From: a virus
Strand: one strand, 5' to 3'
DNA length: 17,122 bases
UHGV virus genome: UHGV-0339891
A model generated the notes under the pieces. That model did not search any database. It saw only the letters and a list, made by a program, of their open reading frames with translations, and was not told the DNA's origin. Numbering within the stretch: position 1 is the stretch's first letter; each line of letters starts with the position of its first letter. Position numbers and translations under genes: made by a program. This document shows, one piece after another, positions 1 to 8,462 of the stretch.

Positions 1-147
1 TGATGCTGAATTTCTGAATCCCATAGCATCTGGCTGTTCTCCGGTACTGGTTACAGCTATAAAGCGGTCATGAAAACAAACCTTGAACCCGTTGCGCTTA
101 AGGAACTTGTACGCAATCTGACAGAGTTCGCGGTGTGTTAACGCCAT
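1..147 (-). CDS. Hypothetical prophage protein, partial (C-terminus runs off the window start)
   Basis: Minus-strand ATG at 147..145 preceded by GGAGGG (plus 152-157); reads MALTHRELCQIAYKFLKRNGFKV... open to position 1; start lies 2 nt downstream of the upstream gene's stop. Confidence 0.4.
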   Translation of the reverse strand, partial: MALTHRELCQIAYKFLKRNGFKVCFHDRFIAVTSTGEQPDAMGFRNSAS

Positions 148-148
148 A

Positions 149-541
149 TCACCCTCCTTTGATGCGAATGCCTGTAGCGCGGATTGCATCGATGACTTCA
201 GAAACTTTGTATGCCATTACCGTTTGGTAATCCTCGTGAAAATCTGTTCGATGAAGCATGCTGCTACGTTCTGGGAGCGATATTTCCCGCGCTTCCAGTT
301 CAGCAATGCGCTTCTCTGCGACTTCCAGCGCATTTACCAGATCATCAACGGTTCCAGCCGCTTGGCGTGCGTAATCTGTAATTGCCAGCTCGCATTCAAT
401 TTCAGTTCCGTTTTCGTTGGTGTGGCAAATAGCAAAGTAATCGGAGTCGATTTCGTTATCAGCCAAACTCCTAAGCGTGTCGGCAACCAGCACTCCGTTT
501 TCAATCAGCATCTCTGTTGCGCGTTTGTCGATGTTGCTCAT
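149..541 (-). CDS. Hypothetical Ea22-region protein (130 aa), shares MSNID N-terminus and AEKRIAELE segment with the neighbouring gene
   Basis: ORF track 149..541; ATG start; start overlaps the stop of the upstream gene (538..541). Confidence 0.55.
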   Translation of the reverse strand: MSNIDKRATEMLIENGVLVADTLRSLADNEIDSDYFAICHTNENGTEIECELAITDYARQAAGTVDDLVNALEVAEKRIAELEAREISLPERSSMLHRTDFHEDYQTVMAYKVSEVIDAIRATGIRIKGG

Positions 542-1401
542 TGCGCGGCCTCCTGGCGGTCTATGCGTTCAATTTCGGCCAGAATAAGTGCGCCAGCTTT
601 CACAAGGTCACGACGCGGCCCAGATTGCTTCCACCAATCAGGAGCCCACGGCCAATGCGCTGGCGTTGAGAAGCCTTGATTGTGTGCGCTAATCGCATAG
701 CAAGCTGCAGCATCTGCCAGCTCACCGTTTTGATAGGCGTCGTCATGCTCCGGTGTCCAACCCTCAACAGCCCTCTGCCGCTGACGTTCTGATATCACAT
801 CCAGAAGTGCAGGATTGAACGCCAGCACCTCCAGTTCAGCAATCCGCTTCTCTGCGGCTTCCAGCTTCTCGCGCATATCGTCAACGTACTCGACCAGAGA
901 TCCGCCAGCAGGAATTTCGCATTCCTCGACCAGTTGGAAGTAGATATCAGCTGCGGCCCGTGTGTTGCTATGCCTAGCGTCGCCCATCTCACCTTCACGA
1001 AGAGCATCGCGTTCGGCGGTAAGATTGGCTATTTTGCTGTCTTTTCCTTCCAGCTCAACGCGAAGCCTCCCAACCGTAAGCGCAATATCCTCGTTCTCCT
1101 GGTCGCGGCGTTTGATGTATTGCTGGTTTCTTTCCCGTTCATCCAGTAATGCCAGCACGGTAGCCGGACTGGCTGCGGCGATGAATTCAGCATTGGCCTG
1201 CTGTTCCATTTGGAAATCTTCATCGAAACCGCTTTCAGGATGCGCTCCTTCAATTCTGCAAATAGGAATATATCCAGCAACTTCACGATGAATTAGTGCA
1301 TCATCACCATCAAATCGGCCCTTTCCATATTCGAGCGACCACTCACCACACGTTGCTTTTTCTGCCTTTTCACGCAGTGCCTGATAGTCAATATTGCTCA
1401 C
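538..1401 (-). CDS. Ea22-like prophage protein (287 aa), coiled-coil centre with a Trp/His-rich C-terminal domain
   Basis: ORF track; N-terminus [21 protein letters not shown] typical of lambdoid Ea22-like proteins (recalled, not searched); apparent GTG start at 1401 overlapping the upstream stop. Confidence 0.55.
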   Translation of the reverse strand: MSNIDYQALREKAEKATCGEWSLEYGKGRFDGDDALIHREVAGYIPICRIEGAHPESGFDEDFQMEQQANAEFIAAASPATVLALLDERERNQQYIKRRDQENEDIALTVGRLRVELEGKDSKIANLTAERDALREGEMGDARHSNTRAAADIYFQLVEECEIPAGGSLVEYVDDMREKLEAAEKRIAELEVLAFNPALLDVISERQRQRAVEGWTPEHDDAYQNGELADAAACYAISAHNQGFSTPAHWPWAPDWWKQSGPRRDLVKAGALILAEIERIDRQEAAQ

Positions 1402-1856
1402 TGGTTGCCTCCTTGGCGTAACTGGGCGGCGAACTCATCAGCACCAAGTGCAATCATTTTGCAGACTGATGCTCCTCCATCATTCGTTCTAAGATGGCTG
1501 GAAAACATCTCTACACCCTGCGCCCTCACTTCAGCCAGGAAGGCGTCGGTGGCTGGTGTTTCAGTGAACTCACTAACCCAGTCGGGTCCAAATTCTTCGG
1601 CGCACATCTTATCGAACTCACGCTCAGATTCTTTCAGCTCTGCATTCTCAGCAGCCAGCGCTGCGCACTTAGCCTCAAGGTTGTCAATCGTGATTCCAGC
1701 AGAACGACACTCCCGCAACGCCGTTTCTAGTTTTGATTCAAGTTCACCAAACTTACGGACAAGATATTCAGCGTTTGTTTCGTTAACCTTTAAATCTCGG
1801 GGGATGCATTTACCTTTCAGAAATCCATCCATCTCAATTAGTGTCATTTGTTTCAT
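1398..1856 (-). CDS. Hypothetical coiled-coil prophage protein (about 152 aa from ATG MKQMTL)
   Basis: ORF track 1398..1874 (GTG); preferred ATG at 1856..1854 overlaps the TGA of the upstream small ORF (ATGA). Confidence 0.45.
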
Positions 1857-2017
1857 TTTTTCCCACTCCGCCACATCGCATTCAGATATTTGTTTTGATT
1901 CACTGATGGAAAAGAATTTCTCTTAAGCAATTCCTCTCTCGATGGCATTGGCTTTACGCGTTGGCGAATAATCATTTCTGCCGGAAGAATGCCGGGATTG
2001 TATGCAAGTCCTCTCAT
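1853..2017 (-). CDS. Small hypothetical protein (54 aa)
   Basis: Not in ORF track (<60 aa); ATG at 2017..2015 preceded by AAGAGGAA with 7-nt spacing; stop overlaps the next start. Confidence 0.3.
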
Positions 2018-2033
2018 GGTAAATTCCTCTTTG

Positions 2034-2348
2034 TTAATTTATTCGTATGCCTGTTCTCTCTTCATCAAGTTTTTTTAGCTTGTATCGCATAGCTCTTACT
2101 GAATAAATTGAGCGGCAGGTTGCAATTGCTATTTCTTCTGCGGAGAACTTACCGAAAAGTGATACTTCGGCTCTTGTCCATCGTCTTCCACGAAGTCGGC
2201 TAACAATGTCAGCGCCAATCCTTGTTGCTTTCGCCATTACTGCTTTCTCAGTCCTTTCCAGTTTTTCAGCGATAACTTCAACTGGCATTGTTGCCGCTAC
2301 TTCGCGCAAGAAATCGACTTCCCATTTCTCCCAAGGAGTCTTTTTCAT
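2034..2348 (-). CDS. Hypothetical prophage protein (104 aa)
   Basis: ORF track; ATG start at 2348; no clear SD. Confidence 0.45.
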
Positions 2349-2359
2349 AGGCGATACCG

Positions 2360-2842
2360 TTATTTGATAAGAAGTGAAGGTTTCCCAACTTTGAGTTGAG
2401 CGCCGGGGATATTTATTCCTGCTTTTAGTTGGTGTTTGATTGCCAGTTTGTCGGCTTTAATTGTCGTTTCAAACTCAACGTATTCAGGAGGAAGGGCGCT
2501 TGAGTCGATTATTTCTACAGTTTCTGACGGTTTGCGGATTGTTACCTGGTGAATACCTGCTCGAATCTTTTTCTTGCCTACCATTTCAAGCGATGACGCT
2601 ATATATGATTTGATGCTGTCAATCTTATTTTGAATTACTGCGGCTCGCTCATTCAGTGACTTTGCCTCTTCCTTGAGGCGTTCAGCATAACCAGATTCAT
2701 TTTTAATGACGGAAAGAAGTTGCTCTATTTTATCGGTAAATTCTCCTTCCATGCCTTCTATTGTGTCAGCAATCATCTCTGGTTCTAAATCTGAATCCAT
2801 CAATTTTGCGTATTCATTGGCAATTTCATACAGTTTGCTCAC
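2360..2842 (-). CDS. Siphovirus Gp157-family protein (about 160 aa)
   Basis: ORF track 2360..2848 (TTG); better start GTG at 2842 with GGAGG 6 nt upstream; size, coiled-coil character and position next to recT fit the Gp157 family (recalled). Confidence 0.5.
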   Translation of the reverse strand: MSKLYEIANEYAKLMDSDLEPEMIADTIEGMEGEFTDKIEQLLSVIKNESGYAERLKEEAKSLNERAAVIQNKIDSIKSYIASSLEMVGKKKIRAGIHQVTIRKPSETVEIIDSSALPPEYVEFETTIKADKLAIKHQLKAGINIPGAQLKVGKPSLLIK

Positions 2843-3728
2843 TGGCAACCTCCAGTTTCTCTTTGCATTCTATGTAAATGGCTTGTACGTTCTGCTGCAA
2901 TTTCATTCCAGATGTCAGGCGATATGCTTCTGCAAAATATCGCTTCAAATCATCCATGTTTTCTGCCTGAGCCATTTCATCACAAAGAAGTTGTGCTTTA
3001 TCCATTATTTCCTGCTGGCGTTTCCGTTTATCTTCGCGGATATCTTCCTCTGATTTGTGCGGCATTACTGGTTCCTGATGCATACCTTCATCTTCGTTAA
3101 GCAGGTGAATGGCATTATCCAGTCGCTGGGCTTTAGGCCAGTATTTGCTGGCGCGTTTAACTATGGTTTTACGCGCCATCTCTTCCCAGAATGTCTTCCA
3201 CGGTCCATTCTTTGCCTTGCTCGTTGCTTCCACAGCTTTAATTTCTGCCAGACTCATTTCTTCAGTCAGGTAGTCACCATCTGCTGTTTTAACCGTACAA
3301 TAACCACCAACAATAGAGCCTCGCTCACCAAATGCGTTGTATTTGTGGGTTGGTGCTGAATCAAGGCCGTTTGATTCATAGGTGTCGTTTGAGTACACCA
3401 GTTTGCATTGCCCCCACTTAATTGATCCTGTCGACTGTGCAAGGTGAAGTAATCCCATATAGCTGATATCAAGGCAAACCATGCCGTCGCGCGGAACCAG
3501 ATAAGCAAGTTTGCTGGCCGGGTTTAAGGTGATGCCGATCGCCGCAACATTGATGATGGCGTTCTGTGCGCTGGTTGGATTTGCCAGTGCCGTTTTAGCC
3601 AGGTAATCATTTTTCTGGAAATACTGAATTGCAAACTGGCTTTCCTTAGCCCATGTCACCGTCTGTTCAGTCAATGCTCCGCAGAATAACTGCTCCTGCT
3701 GTTTAACGAATTCAACGATATTGCTCAT
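2826..3728 (-). CDS. recT: RecT-family single-strand annealing recombinase
   Basis: 300-aa ORF; C-terminal motif NGPWKTFWEEMARKTIVKRASKYWP resembles E. coli RecT NGPWVTHWEEMAKKTAIRRLFKYLP (recalled); ATG overlaps the upstream stop (ATGA). Confidence 0.75.
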   Translation of the reverse strand: MSNIVEFVKQQEQLFCGALTEQTVTWAKESQFAIQYFQKNDYLAKTALANPTSAQNAIINVAAIGITLNPASKLAYLVPRDGMVCLDISYMGLLHLAQSTGSIKWGQCKLVYSNDTYESNGLDSAPTHKYNAFGERGSIVGGYCTVKTADGDYLTEEMSLAEIKAVEATSKAKNGPWKTFWEEMARKTIVKRASKYWPKAQRLDNAIHLLNEDEGMHQEPVMPHKSEEDIREDKRKRQQEIMDKAQLLCDEMAQAENMDDLKRYFAEAYRLTSGMKLQQNVQAIYIECKEKLEVASEQTV

Positions 3729-4036
3729 GCAGCTTCTCCAAAAATGTGTCTGCGTTTAAATATTGCGAAGGCATATTCAGCCTTAACTCTTTCGGTTATT
3801 GCATCCCAGAACCATTCATCGGCTTTTTCCTGATAGTTACAATCATCATCTTCCAGCCAGTCGATAGCATCCTTAGTATGTTCATCTGGTTTATATGAGC
3901 GAAGCATTTCGCTTATTGGGTCGCAACGTTTGCAGAGGCGATCAACTTCACTGTTGATTCGTTCGTAATCTTCATCAGTAAAACTTGCGATTATTTGCGA
4001 TATTTCACGCTTATCATTCAGAGTCAGAATCATCAT
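3725..4036 (-). CDS. Small strongly acidic protein (103 aa, net charge about -10) in the position of lambda gam
   Basis: ORF track; ATG ATG start with GGAG 4 nt upstream; 25 D/E vs 15 K/R by my count; no recognisable similarity to lambda Gam. Confidence 0.5.
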   Translation of the reverse strand: MMILTLNDKREISQIIASFTDEDYERINSEVDRLCKRCDPISEMLRSYKPDEHTKDAIDWLEDDDCNYQEKADEWFWDAITERVKAEYAFAIFKRRHIFGEAA

Positions 4037-4117
4037 CTTTCTCCTGTTCTTTGTGCTGATTGAGCATTTTGTTCATCTGACGAATGAATTCTTCGTCTGA
4101 CCAGTTATCTGTAAAAC

Positions 4118-4270
4118 TCATTTCCTGCGATACCACGGAAGGTTGATAGCTGATTTCATCGCTTTATTTGCTTCAAGCCACATTTTTGAATCACCAATAA
4201 ATCTGGCTATTACTGCTTTGTTCTGTGCAGCACGAAGCATCTGGTGATTGATGGCTATTTCATTGCGCAT
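4118..4270 (-). CDS. kil: Kil-like small protein (50 aa), called by position and size
   Basis: Translated by hand: MRNEIAINHQMLRAAQNKAVIARFIGDSKMWLEANKAMKSAINLPWYRRK; lies immediately downstream of and overlapping the cIII-like gene, as kil does in lambda. Confidence 0.4.
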   Translation of the reverse strand: MRNEIAINHQMLRAAQNKAVIARFIGDSKMWLEANKAMKSAINLPWYRRK

Positions 4271-4389
4271 AACGTCTCCAGTTGTTTCTTTGCTGCTCTG
4301 ATTAATTGTTTAACTCGGCGTGATAATTCAGATTCGTGCGGGTAGAAAGCGGACATGACGCCGCTACCCGCGAGCTGAAAGTGCATCAT
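4252..4389 (-). CDS. cIII: cIII-like small protein (45 aa)
   Basis: Translated by hand: MMHFQLAGSGVMSAFYPHESELSRRVKQLIRAAKKQLETLCAMK; the central segment resembles the lambda CIII helix (ESLLERITRKLRDGWKRL, recalled). Confidence 0.5.
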
Positions 4390-4464
4390 GGGTAACTCCT
4401 TATATTTGATTGCATAACGAAAACGCCTCGAGTGAAGCGTTATTGGTATGCGGTAAAGCCGCGC

Positions 4465-4776
4465 TTAGGCGGCTGATGTTTCTTCTTTCAGGCTTTCGAG
4501 ATATTTACGTGGGTCGTCGTAACATTGGCATTCGCTGTACCAATCCACCCAGCGATCAGTAAGCCCCATCTCTGATAAATCTTCATCGGTAAGGCTCTCA
4601 TCCCACATCTCAAGGCCGTTAGCATTGCAGTAATCAGGCTTGATGTTGTTGTCATACTGAAAGGCGTCATAATCAGCCAGTGCATCCATCAGGCGAACAC
4701 CCTCTTCAACACTTGCCACTTCTACAATGAACGGTTTCATAGGTACTTGCGGGATATGCCAGACACGTAATTTCAT
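4465..4776 (-). CDS. Small strongly acidic protein (103 aa from MKLRVWH, net charge about -14)
   Basis: ORF track 4465..4830; preferred ATG at 4776..4774 with GGAGG upstream; the upstream extension of the track ORF runs through a terminator hairpin. Confidence 0.5.
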   Translation of the reverse strand: MKLRVWHIPQVPMKPFIVEVASVEEGVRLMDALADYDAFQYDNNIKPDYCNANGLEMWDESLTDEDLSEMGLTDRWVDWYSECQCYDDPRKYLESLKEETSAA

Positions 4777-4786
4777 ATTTCCTCCG

Positions 4787-4815
4787 TCAAAAAAATCGCC
4801 CTCACACTGGAGGGC
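4787..4815 (-). terminator. Intrinsic terminator inside the pL operon
   Basis: Minus-strand stem GCCCTC/GAGGGC (plus 4798-4803 / 4810-4815) followed by U7 (plus A-run 4789-4795). Confidence 0.5.
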
Positions 4816-4908
4816 AAAGAAGATTTCCAATAATCAGAACAAGTCGGCTCCTGTTTAGTTACGAGCGACATTGCTCACATAGCAGACTCGCAAATCTGCT
4901 ATAGGCGC

Positions 4909-5070
4909 TTATTCGCATCGCATGACAACATCAAATTTTTCGAGATTACTTTGTCGCAACAATCCTTCTTCTACGCGGTCAGCTTTTCTATAATTATCAA
5001 ATTCGAAATGTTTAATTACTTCTTTCGTTTCTCGCTCTATAACTTCAACAATGTATTTCTTATTCATCAT
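4909..5070 (-). CDS. Small hypothetical protein (53 aa)
   Basis: Not in ORF track; hand translation MMNKKYIVEVIERETKEVIKHFEFDNYRKADRVEEGLLRQSNLEKFDVVMRCE; ATG overlaps the upstream TGA (ATGA); AT-rich. Confidence 0.35.
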   Translation of the reverse strand: MMNKKYIVEVIERETKEVIKHFEFDNYRKADRVEEGLLRQSNLEKFDVVMRCE

Positions 5071-5363
5071 TCTTCCCCAAGAGCTTTTCTGATTGCTGCA
5101 AGACCTTTATTAACAGCTCCATACCATTCTGGATATGTTGTCTTTGTTCTATTTTTGGTTTGCTTAAGTAATAACTGAAGTGCTTCGAGAAGGTCAGGTG
5201 CTGCCGCTATTAGATTGGCATCTTCAATGCGTTGAACTTCCTCACAGATTGCAATATACGAACGCCAGCCTGCGCCATTTTCAAGTGAGTCTGCCTGGAT
5301 GATTTTAATCTCATCGCCATCCATCATTATTTCCCACTTACCTTCAGTACCTTTAAATTCCAT
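5067..5363 (-). CDS. Hypothetical protein (98 aa from MEFKGTEG)
   Basis: ORF track 5067..5369 (GTG); ATG at 5363 with AGAGGTG upstream. Confidence 0.5.
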   Translation of the reverse strand: MEFKGTEGKWEIMMDGDEIKIIQADSLENGAGWRSYIAICEEVQRIEDANLIAAAPDLLEALQLLLKQTKNRTKTTYPEWYGAVNKGLAAIRKALGEE

Positions 5364-5383
5364 GTTCACCTCTGTTGTTTATG

Positions 5384-5411
5384 TCAAAAATAAAGGCCGA
5401 CTATGCGGCCT
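5384..5411 (-). terminator. Intrinsic terminator inside the pL operon
   Basis: Minus-strand stem AGGCCG/CGGCCT with 6-nt loop followed by UUUAUUUUU, starting 5 nt after the stop of the 5416..5865 gene. Confidence 0.45.
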
Positions 5412-5415
5412 GAAA

Positions 5416-5865
5416 TTACTTAACCAATGATGCTGCATATTCGATAAGGTAAAGCTTTGGGGCCAGCCAAATTTTTAACCAAGTCATATTGGTTACTACA
5501 CCAATAATAAAAATCCCCCACAGAGTCAAAACTCCAACCAATGGCATGATAAGAAGGTTAATATCTCCTTTGCTATCCCAAACCATTGTCGGCCTGTATT
5601 TTGGATTTCCCCTCTCCCATGAGTATCCTTCATCACCGATTTTACCTGTCTCAACTCTTTGGCACTGCTTCTTCATAAACCAGAAAACCAGTGGGATTGT
5701 TAGAATGGCTATTAATGTTTTAATCAGACTGTCAACCATATTCCATAGCAGCAACTGATGAACAACATCAGGAATCTGTGCCTGGCTAAATGAAACAGCC
5801 GCGTCTATTCCATTACTGGCTTTTTGCAGTAGTTCTACGAGAATCTTGTTTGCTTGTTCTTCCAT
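5416..5865 (-). CDS. Predicted two-TM inner-membrane protein (149 aa), first gene after N; possible superinfection-exclusion type function
   Basis: ORF track; ATG preceded by GAGGTG; two hydrophobic stretches (LIKTLIAILTIPLVFWF and LLIMPLVGVLTLWGIFIIGVV). Confidence 0.55.
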   Translation of the reverse strand: MEEQANKILVELLQKASNGIDAAVSFSQAQIPDVVHQLLLWNMVDSLIKTLIAILTIPLVFWFMKKQCQRVETGKIGDEGYSWERGNPKYRPTMVWDSKGDINLLIMPLVGVLTLWGIFIIGVVTNMTWLKIWLAPKLYLIEYAASLVK

Positions 5866-5984: not shown

Positions 5985-6173
5985 TTATGCCTTCTTGCAG
6001 CGAAGGCTTCCGAGTGATGCTGCTTTATCTGCTCTGACGCAACCAGAGAGCTTTAGCGCAATTTTTCGCGCCAGTCGCTGCTCTTGCATTGCCTGTTCAC
6101 GTTGAGCCTGTCTGCGTGCTCTGCGGCGGTTTCTGGCATTATCGTCAGCCAGATATGTAATAACTACTGTCAT
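5985..6173 (-). CDS. N: N-like transcription antiterminator, short (62 aa) with an arginine-rich motif
   Basis: ATG with GGAGG 5 nt upstream; N-terminal motif NARNRRRARRQAQREQ; first gene downstream of pL and nutL. Confidence 0.5.
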   Translation of the reverse strand: MTVVITYLADDNARNRRRARRQAQREQAMQEQRLARKIALKLSGCVRADKAASLGSLRCKKA

Positions 6174-6367
6174 GTTGACCTCCGATGATTGACTTTGGTG
6201 ATTGGATGGCCGGTGCTGAATTCCGGCTTACTGGTTAGAGCGCCCGCACTACCAGTGACGCTGTCTTGAGGCGCAGATTGGTTACTGCTTGCCATGAGCG
6301 CTGTTTATACATTGGTCGAGCATCAGCCTGCTCATTCATCCAATCCCAAAGCCAACTACTCTTTGGT

Positions 6368-6408
6368 TCCCGCATTTCGGCGGGACAATCCCATCAATGT
6401 TAAAGAGC
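6368..6408 (-). promoter_or_regulatory. nutL (boxA GGCTCTTTAA plus boxB hairpin)
   Basis: Minus-strand GGCTCTTTAA (plus 6400-6408), 13-nt spacer, then hairpin CCCGC-CGAAAT-GCGGG (plus 6368-6386); the same boxB occurs at nutR. Confidence 0.6.
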
Positions 6409-6454
6409 CTGCCAATCTGTTCCGTTTGGCTACCAGCGTCCTGCTGATGGCTTA

Positions 6455-6540
6455 AAGATAACTTAGGTTATAGGTGTGGTCAATAACATAATTTATATTT
6501 TGTGGTAAATAAGTTATAAGTGATGGATAACAAAGGTATT
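6455..6540 (-). promoter_or_regulatory. pL promoter with OL operator sites
   Basis: Minus strand: -35 TTGACC (plus 6478-6483), 17-bp spacer, -10 TATCTT (plus 6455-6460); operators ATAACTTAGGTTAT 6458-6471, ATAACATAATTTAT 6483-6496, and weaker ATAACAAAGGTATT 6527-6540. Confidence 0.55.
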
Positions 6541-6660
6541 TTATTTTTGTAAATGTTGCTGATTGATTGGTGTTTGAGGGCTTGCGTGCGGGGTGAAGGT
6601 GTTACCTTTGGCTTGATGCTTGTCTATGATGATGATGGGTGATTGGGTGGTGAACGGCAG

Positions 6661-6695
6661 GAAAAGAAAACCCGGCGCTGAGGCCGGGTGTTTTT
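6661..6695. terminator. Bidirectional intrinsic terminator ending the cI operon
   Basis: Stem CCCGGC/GCCGGG (6671-6676 / 6683-6688) flanked by TGTTTTT on plus and TTTTCTTTTC on minus. Confidence 0.55.
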
Positions 6696-6990
6696 AGTCT
6701 TTTCTTTTGCTTAGCATTTCGTCGATTTCTAAGTCAATACGATATTGATCTATTGCTTTTCTCTCGTTTGGGGTTGGTATTTTATACTGTTCAATTAGAT
6801 CTGTTGTGTATTTTATTTCATCTAATGTGATTTTTATATCAGATAGAATCTCTTTTATATCAATTAGATGCTCTTCTTCTTTTGCGCGATTAGAGCTATG
6901 TTCAATCATTTGAGATAGCTTTTTGCTAATGCTTAGCAAAACAAAAAGAATGATGACCAAAACAACAACAAAAACTATCAGAAATTCCAT
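6694..6990 (-). CDS. Small membrane-anchored coiled-coil protein (98 aa), a moron in the rexAB position downstream of cI
   Basis: ORF track; ATG with GGAGG 4 nt upstream; N-terminal TM helix EFLIVFVVVLVIILFVLLSI then a charged helical domain; AT-rich; terminator 6 nt after the stop. Confidence 0.55.
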   Translation of the reverse strand: MEFLIVFVVVLVIILFVLLSISKKLSQMIEHSSNRAKEEEHLIDIKEILSDIKITLDEIKYTTDLIEQYKIPTPNERKAIDQYRIDLEIDEMLSKRKD

Positions 6991-7030
6991 TATCCCTCCG
7001 CACTTCCGTAAGTCTTCTTCTGATTATCGG

Positions 7031-7738
7031 TTACCAACTATGAGACGACCAGAATACTCTGCCAATAATCCTTACGGTTTTATGAAATTCATCTCTATCC
7101 ATTACTTCATCCGGGTACTCTTCGCGATTTATTGATCTGATTATCACCGATGTAGGGGTGGCGATTAATGTTTTTACTCGTAACAAATCAGACTGGCAAA
7201 TAGCGTAGGTTTTACCATCTCTGATTGTGGTATCTTGCGTGTTAACACCAACAACATCGCCATCGTGAAGCGTTGGTTCCATGCTTTGCCCTACAACCCT
7301 AACTAGCTTGGCTGATCTTTCAGATACTCCCATCTTTTTCAGATAGTGCTTTCTGAAAACCAAAGAGAACTCCGATGATTCCTCTAGCTCGCAGCTACCG
7401 CTTCCAGCTGAAAGCGAAACGTTAAGAAGAGGCAACGCAACAAACTCGTCATCGTTTCTTTTAATGTCTTCCCATACCACAGCTTTTAAAGATGACTCAC
7501 GGACATTGGATGGTTCTTCATGTGCACCATCCCTCATTTCACCAATACCAGAACTAAGCCATTCAGGACGCACTTTTAAAGCATTGGCTAATTCAACCAT
7601 CTTGCGAGATCCGTTTGTTTTACCGGACGACATCTTCTGTATGGCTGGCTGAGATATTCCAACCATGTCAGCAAGCTGTGATTGTGATACCCCTGCTGAG
7701 CTCATGGCTGCATTTAGTCTTTCTGCGAATGTTTTCAT
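7031..7738 (-). CDS. cI: cI-type prophage repressor (HTH plus LexA-like S24 peptidase domain)
   Basis: ORF track 7031..7768 (TTG); ATG at 7738 (MKTFAERL); HTH segment QSQLADMVGISQPAIQKM; Ala-Gly site in LSAGSG; Ser in GQSMEP and Lys in LLRVKTL. Confidence 0.8.
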   Translation of the reverse strand: MKTFAERLNAAMSSAGVSQSQLADMVGISQPAIQKMSSGKTNGSRKMVELANALKVRPEWLSSGIGEMRDGAHEEPSNVRESSLKAVVWEDIKRNDDEFVALPLLNVSLSAGSGSCELEESSEFSLVFRKHYLKKMGVSERSAKLVRVVGQSMEPTLHDGDVVGVNTQDTTIRDGKTYAICQSDLLRVKTLIATPTSVIIRSINREEYPDEVMDRDEFHKTVRIIGRVFWSSHSW

Positions 7739-7745
7739 ACCCACA

Positions 7746-7816
7746 AATCTATAACTACGGTTATCCAAAGTAAAATAACAAAGGTTATTGCTATTTTTTA
7801 TAACTTGAGTTATCTT
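7746..7816. promoter_or_regulatory. OR region: three operators with divergent pRM and pR
   Basis: Operators ATAACTACGGTTAT 7751-7764, ATAACAAAGGTTAT 7775-7788, ATAACTTGAGTTAT 7800-7813; pR -35 TTGCTA 7788-7793, 17 bp, -10 TATCTT 7811-7816; pRM (minus) -35 TTTACT 7769-7774, 17 bp, -10 TAGATT 7746-7751, giving a near-leaderless cI. Confidence 0.6.
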
Positions 7817-7849
7817 TGGTTATAAGTAATGACCACAAGAGGTATGCTC

Positions 7850-8074
7850 ATGAATTTAGTAATTCAACGAGCCTTGAAAATTGTCGGTAGCCAAAAGCGT
7901 CTTGCCGACAAGTGTGGTGTAACGCAGCCAGCAGTACACAAATGGCTGAAAGGCGGGTTGGTCTCTCCAGAGAAAGTTACCGCCATCGTTAACGCCACTG
8001 GAGGGCAGATCAAGGCTTACGAAATTCGCCCCGATTTGCCACACCTGTTTCCAAAACCGAATCAGGCAGCATAA
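7850..8074 (+). CDS. cro: Cro-like repressor (74 aa from MNLVIQ)
   Basis: ORF track 7829..8074; preferred ATG 7850 with AAGAGG 7 nt upstream; HTH-like segment QKRLADKCGVTQPAVHKW; first gene right of OR. Confidence 0.65.
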   Translation: MNLVIQRALKIVGSQKRLADKCGVTQPAVHKWLKGGLVSPEKVTAIVNATGGQIKAYEIRPDLPHLFPKPNQAA

Positions 8075-8081
8075 GTAACAC

Positions 8082-8126
8082 CGCTCTTTAACAGTCATGG
8101 TCCTCATTCCCGCCGAAATGCGGGAA
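8082..8126 (+). promoter_or_regulatory. nutR (boxA CGCTCTTTAA plus boxB hairpin)
   Basis: CGCTCTTTAA 8082-8091, 15-nt spacer, hairpin TTCCCGC-CGAAAT-GCGGGAA 8107-8126, identical to the nutL boxB. Confidence 0.6.
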
Positions 8127-8132
8127 TACAAC

Positions 8133-8167
8133 GCGCATAAGTTGATGCGCATAACTTCTTATTTGTT
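8133..8167 (+). terminator. Possible tR1-like terminator/pause hairpin
   Basis: Hairpin GCGCAT-AAGTTG-ATGCGC followed by a T-rich tract between nutR and cII; tail is weak. Confidence 0.3.
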
Positions 8168-8183
8168 AAGGAAATACTTACAT

Positions 8184-8462
8184 ATGCAACTTACAAGTAC
8201 TCGCAAGAAAGCGAATGCAATTACAAGCAACATCCTGAATCGAATTGCTGTACGTGGTCAGCGAAAGGTTGCCGACGCGTTAGGGATTAATGAATCGCAA
8301 ATTTCGCGATGGAAAGATAGCTTCATCCCAAAAATGGGAATGCTTCTGGCTGTTCTTGAATGGGGTGTTGAAGACGAGGAGTTGGCGGAACTGGCTAAGC
8401 AAGTAGCCAGAATGCTGACAAAAGAAAAAGCCCCGAAGAACGGCGAATTCTTCGAGGCCTGA
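8184..8462 (+). CDS. cII: cII-like transcriptional activator (92 aa)
   Basis: ATG 8184 with AAGGAAA upstream; SQISRWKDSFIPKMGMLLAVLEWGV matches lambda CII SQISRWKRDWIPKFSMLLAVLEWGV (recalled). Confidence 0.75.
   Translation: MQLTSTRKKANAITSNILNRIAVRGQRKVADALGINESQISRWKDSFIPKMGMLLAVLEWGVEDEELAELAKQVARMLTKEKAPKNGEFFEA
8421..8458 (-). terminator. Minus-strand intrinsic terminator inside the 3' end of cII (OOP-like antisense RNA terminator)
   Basis: Minus-strand hairpin CCUCGAAGAA-UUCGCCG-UUCUUCGGGG followed by CUUUUUCUUUU; no T-run on the plus strand. Confidence 0.45.

Follow-up and report, generated by a model that had tools for sequence, protein, structure and literature searches.

An apparently promoter-less cassette behind cI of a lambda-like prophage encodes a small protein with a predicted membrane anchor and a conserved helical hairpin

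Results

A 98-codon ORF between cI and OL

The virus genome UHGV-0339891 (17,122 nucleotides (nt); "the window" refers to this whole stretch of DNA) contains the early region of a lambda-like prophage. Here we analyzed a small open reading frame (ORF) that lies between the repressor gene cI and the left operators (OL) of this prophage. The initial annotation had described it as a single AT-rich ORF on the cI strand, in the position that rexAB takes in lambda. The coordinates, the operators and a GC content of 30%, compared with 43% in cI and 46% in the window, bear this description out. The ORF and the segments next to it are listed below (aa, amino acids).

6694..6990, minus strand: 98-aa ORF with ATG start, filling the stretch from the cI stop to OL
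6991..7030, minus strand: cI-ORF junction of 40 nt, including the Shine-Dalgarno sequence; the cassette common to Citrobacter-type loci starts at 7000
6660..6689, both strands: two-way intrinsic terminator, at which the inferred cI-ORF transcript would end
6537..6659, no strand assigned: terminator-to-OL spacer, rich in G and T on the plus strand (C and A on the cI strand), with a GC skew of +0.43

The ribosome-binding site, first described as strong, does contain a Shine-Dalgarno GGAGG at 6995..6999, but the spacing is tight, with only 4 nt separating it from the ORF ATG. None of the 40 junction positions is variable among the 24 unique E. coli-type sequences, and the flanking genes vary at 5–7% of sites. 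RNA structure masking the ribosome-binding site was ruled out, as the junction shows no unusual structure (z = 0.77). At the other end, the terminator stem (6689..6670) consists of 7 base pairs, six of them G-C, and is followed by TTTCTTTT. It begins 4 nt past the ORF stop, rather than 6 nt as originally reported. A T-run is present on both strands, and the plus strand also reads as a terminator. This element is probably the equivalent of lambda t-imm.

The ORF is under purifying selection

We compared the ORF with its 74–77% identical homologues from Citrobacter freundii and metagenomic contigs. The ratio of nonsynonymous to synonymous divergence (dN/dS) was 0.15–0.17 for the whole ORF and 0.05–0.08 for residues 44–98, at a synonymous divergence of about 0.8–1.1. 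None of the 32 E. coli-type copies (24 unique sequences) has a disrupted ORF, and 13 of the 21 variable sites among them fall on codon position 3. Among 1.84 billion representative proteins, a profile search matched only 14 clusters, with E-values from 5e-36 to 6e-4. All of these proteins are 94–126 aa long, begin with the same N-terminal hydrophobic segment and have the hairpin motif described below in common; length, architecture and motif are thus preserved down to 27% identity. These comparisons show that ORF 6694..6990 is a genuine gene under selection.

The opposite view would be that the ORF is a non-functional hitch-hiker or a mis-call in AT-rich spacer DNA. It is indeed short and AT-rich, its annotation is that of a hypothetical protein only, and one E. 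coli variant, P0010, has lost the anchor (its record H129 matches 64% of the ORF). However, a dN/dS of 0.15 overall and far lower in the C-terminal part, the third-position bias, the 32 intact copies and the distant conservation of the motif effectively refute this view, and we consider it very improbable. The P0010 protein itself (H129; E. coli 3CM, NZ_CM137008.1 3438998-3439188) is 75 aa long; it retains the hairpin, but in place of the anchor has 14 unrelated residues at its N-terminus, and it probably stems from truncation or rearrangement.

Homologues follow repressors of at least eight immunity types

The ORF was found in 98–102 of 5,426 complete E. coli genomes (~1.8%), in copies at least 95% identical. 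These copies are always chromosomal, lie inside lambda-like prophages only and are annotated as a hypothetical protein adjoining an XRE-family regulator. They are frequent in O26:H11 strains and other pathogenic E. coli, and one sequenced phage, the Stx1a-converting phage Stx1a_10051, has the gene. Relatives with named sources come from Citrobacter freundii, C. portucalensis and Yersinia frederiksenii; further relatives are on viral contigs with mosaic segments common to Enterobacter and Klebsiella phages. No relative was found in the species-representative genome set, and a metagenome scan returned only near-identical copies and one locus already in the set. The plasmid collection gave a single partial match (36% of the query, 51% identity), on a 1.4-Mb E. 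coli record.

The homologue starts 0–54 nt downstream of a same-strand repressor gene with helix-turn-helix (HTH) and S24 domains in 10 of 14 distinct contexts, and these repressors face cro and cII. All looked-up relatives with E < 1e-10 belong to these repressor-linked contexts. The small proteins behind the repressors are 28–77% identical to each other and 34–77% identical to the window protein. The repressors that precede them mostly share 19–41% identity, but a few related pairs reach up to 65% and one reaches 77%; over their N-terminal 90 residues identity is 14–54%, with one pair at 72%. Therefore, at least eight immunity types are represented. A hairpin and T-run just past the stop were found in 8 of the 10 homologues.

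The most distant relatives (26–35% identity) are not located behind repressors, namely L048 (P0022), L044 (P0021), L049 (P0025) and L055 (P0023). Their contexts comprise a place after a sigma-54-dependent activator, a plasmid-like contig with Rep3 and integrase genes, a place after a SHOCT-domain protein, and a stretch of unannotated ORFs.

The cassette lacks a promoter of its own and fills a variable slot

DNA homology with the Citrobacter-type loci is confined to 7000..6667, that is, to the Shine-Dalgarno sequence, the ORF and the terminator stem, and the flanks are unrelated. This confinement defines a promoter-less cassette, made up of ribosome-binding site, 98-codon ORF and terminator, that sits directly behind cI and depends on cI transcription. 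No promoter of its own was detected: the sole 9/12 promoter-like match is within the 3′ end of cI and not part of the cassette, and three promoter-like matches were counted where shuffled sequence would give 5.3. Comparison of the loci further indicates that the cassette moves between enterobacterial lambda-like prophages of differing immunity and that its landing place is the same in nearly all clear relatives. The design of ribosome-binding site, gene and terminator would represent cargo that borrows the repressor promoter rather than supplying its own.

Phages with a related cI that lack the ORF delimit the slot to approximately 6549/6559..7030, an almost exact match to the 6541..7030 first proposed. 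E. coli prophages with a 92% or 79% identical cI align with the window as far as the cI stop, then again from 6548–6558, and carry different cargo in between. In E. coli 2014C-3061 (L008; cI 92% identical) the slot holds a DUF3024 protein gene at 2622-2963 on the minus strand and two further ORFs, and the DUF3024 protein matches the PADLOC defence candidate PDC-S43 (E 7e-42). The DUF3024 protein is followed there by a 177-aa phrog_2602 protein. In L007 (cI 79% identical) the cargo is again different and includes a convergent 69-aa ORF.

The initial annotation had also called the ORF a moron, a term that in the sense of Juhala and Hendrix includes a promoter of the element's own (PMC3594210). 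Compared with close relatives, the ORF is extra DNA with a shifted GC content and its own terminator, and the promoter is the one missing hallmark. The term is therefore apt as far as an AT-rich insertion with a terminator is concerned, but not with regard to the promoter, and the mobile unit extends from the Shine-Dalgarno sequence to the terminator.

The spacer between terminator and OL is the most variable segment among the E. coli copies (0.15 variable sites per position). It is not present in the Citrobacter-type loci, where a convergent ORF of 68–74 aa sits instead. In the window the spacer carries a 29-codon plus-strand ORF (6553..6642). The small convergent ORFs of relatives in this space (68–74 aa) are located at 6324-6548 (minus) in L004, 6324-6530 (minus) in L002 and 2639-2848 (plus) in L007; they match phrog_3975 and phrog_3946, both of unknown function, and do not occur in this window. 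A small RNA (sRNA) or anti-sRNA in the slot was dropped as a candidate because the spacer (6559-6664) is the least conserved part; in addition, Rfam gave no match at the gathering threshold in 6300-7100, with chance-level matches only at E up to 1. We also considered an sRNA of the svsR/C0293 type, as published for the 3′ end of a lambda-like cI (PMC12803456), and rejected it: K-12 C0293 scored 17 against window positions 6901-7800, with a mean of 17.1 for shuffled sequence.

The ORF would be transcribed together with cI

The genes and sites that bear on the expression of the ORF are the following.

7031..7738, minus strand: cI-type repressor gene, 235 aa (Pfam HTH_3, E 7.8e-7, and Peptidase_S24, 2.4e-17; phrog_4, 1.6e-52), inferred first gene of a cI-ORF operon
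7751..7813, between cI and cro: three operators of the right operator region (OR), exact ATAACNNNNGTTAT matches, at the expected place of pRM and pR
6455..6536, minus strand: OL operators and pL-like promoter, forming the left edge of the cargo slot
7829..8074, plus strand: cro-like gene
8097..8462, plus strand: cII (Pfam Phage_CII, E 3e-42)
8217..8230, minus strand: candidate pRE box, exact TTGCTTGTAATTGC (TTGCN6TTGC), in the 5′ part of cII and directed towards cI
5985..6173, minus strand: N-like antiterminator gene (phrog_271, E 1e-17)

The operator motif ATAACNNNNGTTAT has six matches compared with a chance expectation of 0.39. Two of them, at 6458-6471 and 6483-6496, belong to OL, where a leftward pL-like promoter (TTGACC-17-TATCTT) runs from 6483 to 6455. 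On the OR side, a TAGATT at 7751..7746 overlaps the nearest operator and lies 7 nt 5′ of the cI ATG, which we take to be an arrangement like that of the leaderless lambda pRM. The box at 8217..8230 is one of three exact TTGCN6TTGC matches in the window, and both its place and its strand are as expected. Its layout presumably corresponds to that of the CII-activated lambda pRE, in which case it would be a second promoter transcribing the ORF.

The short gaps to cI, the promoter-less cassette, the terminator and the pRM-like and pRE-like elements together suggest a cI-ORF transcript that is made in the lysogen and during establishment and ends at 6660-6689. Expression in the lysogen, which the initial annotation had considered likely, is in our view very likely, because the operon-like link to cI is kept across at least eight unrelated repressor types.

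Co-expression with cI would also be expected if the protein regulated the phage's own lysis-lysogeny decision or induction, for example by modulating the FtsH/HflKC/HflD-dependent turnover of CII or the RecA-stimulated cleavage of the S24 repressor. In this scenario it would be made with cI from pRE and pRM. All clear family members do lie behind an S24 repressor, in phages that also have cII, and the candidate pRE box would express the ORF during establishment. The CII-degrading machinery is located at the cytoplasmic face of the inner membrane, and with cIII of E. coli E7476 as query no similar sequence was found in the window. However, phages with 79–92% identical cI, cro and cII are without the ORF and carry other cargo in its place. 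Since such near-identical switches do without it, the ORF is not a core part of the switch. Moreover, it follows at least eight unrelated repressor types, its 30% GC marks it as acquired cargo, and linkage to cII is expected in any lambda-like immunity region. We therefore regard a role in the switch as distinctly improbable.

The protein combines a generic anchor with a conserved hairpin

Three parts can be distinguished in the 98-aa product.

Residues 3-22: hydrophobic anchor, a single hydrophobic segment, FLIVFVVVLVIILFVLLSI
Residues 23-43: linker, variable in length and sequence
Residues 44-98: acidic helical hairpin, the conserved part

This agrees with the N-terminal transmembrane helix and charged helical domain noted previously. 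The anchor contains no polar residue, and its sequence drifts across the family. The soluble part (76 residues) is acidic, with an isoelectric point of 5.2. The hairpin carries the motif IKY[TV]TDxIExYK[LI]P...ER..[IL]D....[DN].E[IV], and M1, Y69, P72, D81 and E88 are invariant across the family. No lysine or arginine precedes the anchor in any of the 17 aligned members, and 15 of the 17 have one right behind it. By the positive-inside rule, this distribution predicts an N-terminus outside and a C-terminus inside the cell, and the conserved hairpin domain is accordingly predicted to be cytoplasmic.

AlphaFold (AF2) models are all-helical, with a predicted local distance difference test score (pLDDT) of 81–82. 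The only consistent break, at residues 69-73, coincides with the invariant YK[LI]P turn, and the least confident part is the linker at about residues 31-44. In helix 2, seven of the eight heptad a/d positions are hydrophobic. As the predicted template modelling score (pTM) of the monomer is only 0.29–0.31, the modelled monomer is not a compact fold; a second model from a deeper alignment gave the same helices with a pTM of 0.31.

These properties can be read in terms of an abortive-infection effector, in which a phage trigger binds the hairpin, the protein oligomerises through its anchor, the membrane is depolarised or permeabilised and the cell dies, so that a single protein would act as the counterpart of RexA and RexB. 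An anchor combined with a heptad helix would permit oligomerisation, and the low pTM of the monomer points to an oligomer or a bound state. However, FLIVFVVVLVIILFVLLSI is purely hydrophobic, has no polar or charged residue that could line a pore and drifts freely in sequence; nothing in it suggests a Rex-like channel. The supposed sensor domain is under purifying selection (dN/dS 0.05–0.08) instead of showing the diversifying pattern frequent in phage sensors. Further points on this effector come from the known occupants of the slot and are considered with them below. A type I toxin of the Hok or TisB kind is hydrophobic, usually shorter than 60 aa and under the control of an antisense or overlapping small RNA; the ORF product has 98 aa with a 76-residue soluble domain, 6300-7100 contains no Rfam RNA, and the spacer behind the ORF is the segment with the least conservation.

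The product had been said to resemble no described family, and the searches support this. It matches phrog_18389 over its full length (E 5.2e-62, 207 bits, residues 1-98 on profile positions 1-98) and is therefore a member of this cluster; as the cluster has no annotated function, membership gives no mechanism. Only clusters of unknown function were matched in PHROG. No above-threshold match was obtained in Pfam, NCBIfam or PADLOC, where the best hits were weak matches of the anchor to DUF5385, MscL and ZorB (13.5 bits for ZorB, the best in PADLOC). Foldseek searches against the PDB and BFVD returned no structural relative, and a sequence profile search of the PDB returned designed coiled coils only. 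Thus, the profile and structure searches suggested with the initial annotation yielded no confident match to a known structural or housekeeping family. In the literature the RefSeq protein is not mentioned, and keyword searches gave no description of the family. YmfJ of e14, encoded by a small ORF behind a cI-like repressor, was considered as a relative and found to be unrelated (hhalign probability 0.1%).

Known occupants of the slot and known exclusion proteins

In lambda, rexAB is made in the lysogen from pRM, and the same is expected for the ORF. RexAB excludes T4 rII and further phages through a collapse of the membrane potential. Lambda rexAB and bstA of the Salmonella prophage BTP1 share the slot, and the region between cI and N has been described as a mosaic hotspot (PMC8585504). 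Like the ORF, rexA and rexB lie between cI and OL on the cI strand and are followed by a terminator before OL (PMC8585504). However, RexAB is encoded by two genes, for a cytoplasmic sensor and a multi-pass membrane protein, whereas the ORF is one gene for a 98-aa single-pass protein; no above-threshold match in Pfam, NCBIfam or PADLOC links it to RexA or RexB.

The bstA gene, like the ORF, is one accessory gene that immediately follows cI. It is believed to use the repressor promoter, has its own terminator and keeps its position across diverse prophages; BstA localises to sites of phage DNA replication, and aba serves as a DNA-based self-immunity element (PMC8585504). BstA differs from the ORF product in its unrelated sequence (the only PADLOC hit of the latter being that of its anchor to ZorB) and in that the ORF product is a small membrane protein. 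Thus, rexAB and bstA share with the ORF only the slot and the operon logic (PMC8585504).

The common slot and operon layout nevertheless count in favour of the one-protein abortive-infection effector, as rexAB and bstA are both abortive-infection systems (PMC8585504). On the other side, PADLOC gave nothing beyond the anchor match to ZorB, and no self-immunity element is evident: none resembling aba was identified at the ORF locus, where no search for such an element was made. Taken together with the hydrophobic anchor and the selection on the hairpin, we consider this effector to be quite unlikely.

A different comparison is offered by gp15 of HK97, a YebO-like small inner-membrane protein whose gene is an AT-shifted insertion in a lambda-like phage; it is made by the prophage and confers protection against phages of other immunity groups (PMC3594210). 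The likeness consists in the small inner-membrane character. The gp15 gene differs in that it belongs to the tail operon, where it has a promoter and a terminator to itself, and in that its product resembles YebO of the host; the ORF is part of the cI operon and lacks its own promoter. The ORF has no above-threshold Pfam match that would indicate YebO-family similarity, and the prediction places its conserved part in the cytoplasm. By sequence and architecture, the ORF product is neither RexA or RexB, nor BstA, nor a gp15/YebO protein.

Lactococcal Sie2009-type genes code for membrane proteins that act against genome entry; they belong to the lysogeny module and adjoin the repressor gene. P22 SieA and T4 Imm are membrane proteins that block genome entry (PMC11436027). 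No relationship of sequence or fold to Sie2009, SieA or Imm was found, and topology, size, hosts or phage types differ. HK97 gp15 and P22 SieA set a precedent for small inner-membrane proteins expressed from a prophage that block genome entry (PMC3594210, PMC11436027).

A membrane-tethered exclusion factor as the proposed function

That the ORF is cargo of the cI operon at the place of rexAB is well supported. A phage-defence function of the ORF, as suggested in the initial annotation, is a reasonable hypothesis in view of its position, the other cargo of the slot (PDC-S43, rexAB, bstA) and the protein architecture. Among the specific mechanisms, we tentatively favour, at somewhat less than even probability, a membrane-tethered binder at the inner membrane face that excludes superinfecting phages. 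This choice is based on three considerations: the characterised and candidate cargo of the slot is anti-phage, the constrained part of the protein is the cytoplasmic hairpin on a generic anchor, and nothing looks channel-lining.

According to this proposal, the ORF would share the cI transcript made from pRM in the lysogen, and probably also that made from pRE during establishment, and the transcript would end at 6670-6689, as the lambda cI-rexA-rexB transcript does at t-imm. The product would insert into the inner membrane with a two-residue periplasmic N-terminus and a plain hydrophobic anchor. This anchor would hold the acidic coiled-coil hairpin, with its conserved YK[LI]P...ER turn, at the cytoplasmic membrane face, where the hairpin would bind a conserved partner. 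The partner would most likely be a host protein in or close to the inner membrane on which incoming phages rely for genome entry or early development. In this way the lysogen would exclude superinfecting phages of other immunity types and the cell would not be killed, an action like that of a superinfection-exclusion factor and unlike that of the Rex pair of sensor and channel.

Strong purifying selection on the hairpin is easier to reconcile with a conserved, host-like partner than with a fast-evolving phage trigger. A conserved host partner, as suggested by the conserved hairpin, would also be in keeping with cargo unrelated to phages, i.e. a small membrane protein that tunes an envelope, transport, stress or division function of the lysogen for host fitness or virulence. 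Modulation of transporters or sensors is common among small bacterial membrane proteins. In favour of such a role are also the non-phage contexts of the weakest relatives, the frequency of the gene in O26:H11 and other pathogenic E. coli, and the envelope-located small proteins noted in PMC3594210. However, no similarity to a known virulence or stress family was found in Pfam or NCBIfam, the gene is limited to about 1.8% of complete E. coli genomes and there to lambda-like prophages, and the other characterised cargo of the slot is anti-phage. We therefore consider a purely host-directed role unlikely.

Several observations weigh against the tethered exclusion factor as well. No homology to a characterised exclusion or defence protein was found in Pfam, NCBIfam, PADLOC, PHROG, the PDB or BFVD. 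A predicted cytoplasmic domain with scant periplasmic exposure is unlike the supposed action of the better-known entry blockers. The position behind cI is not specific to function, because any promoter-less lysogenic cargo must sit there. The packing of the hairpin is uncertain at the monomer pTM obtained. Finally, since prophage immunity regions are not where the weakest relatives (E 6e-6 to 6e-4) are located, the fold may have a more general membrane role.

With slightly more reserve, we suggest that the locus could represent a new single-protein, lysogen-expressed anti-phage system, in which a cassette that plugs into any cI operon supplies a cytoplasm-facing, tethered coiled-coil hairpin that blocks from inside. 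We know of no exclusion or defence protein that has been shown to block from the inside of the membrane by means of such a hairpin. The novelty is moderate: the kind of locus is already known, and what is new is the unrelated occupant and the promoter-less design. A third, unrelated and much smaller occupant of the rexAB/bstA slot would add a compact and easily tested candidate exclusion function. The gene occurs in about 2% of the complete genomes of E. coli, among them O26:H11 Shiga-toxin strains, and in a Stx1a-converting phage, so that any influence it has on phage susceptibility or on the physiology of the host matters for prophage persistence and spread.

Neighbouring features of the window

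Just downstream of the N-like gene, the window contains a 149-aa ORF (5416..5865, minus strand) with two hydrophobic segments, roughly where lambda-like phages have sieB-type genes. It matches phrog_3054 (function unknown, E 3e-64), with no match in Pfam, NCBIfam or PADLOC, and occurs also in prophages without the 98-aa ORF. Around cI and the ORF, the window and E. coli E7476 (L051) are 100% identical. The left side of the window (1..5400) is mosaic, with the pL operon matching E7476 only in patches.

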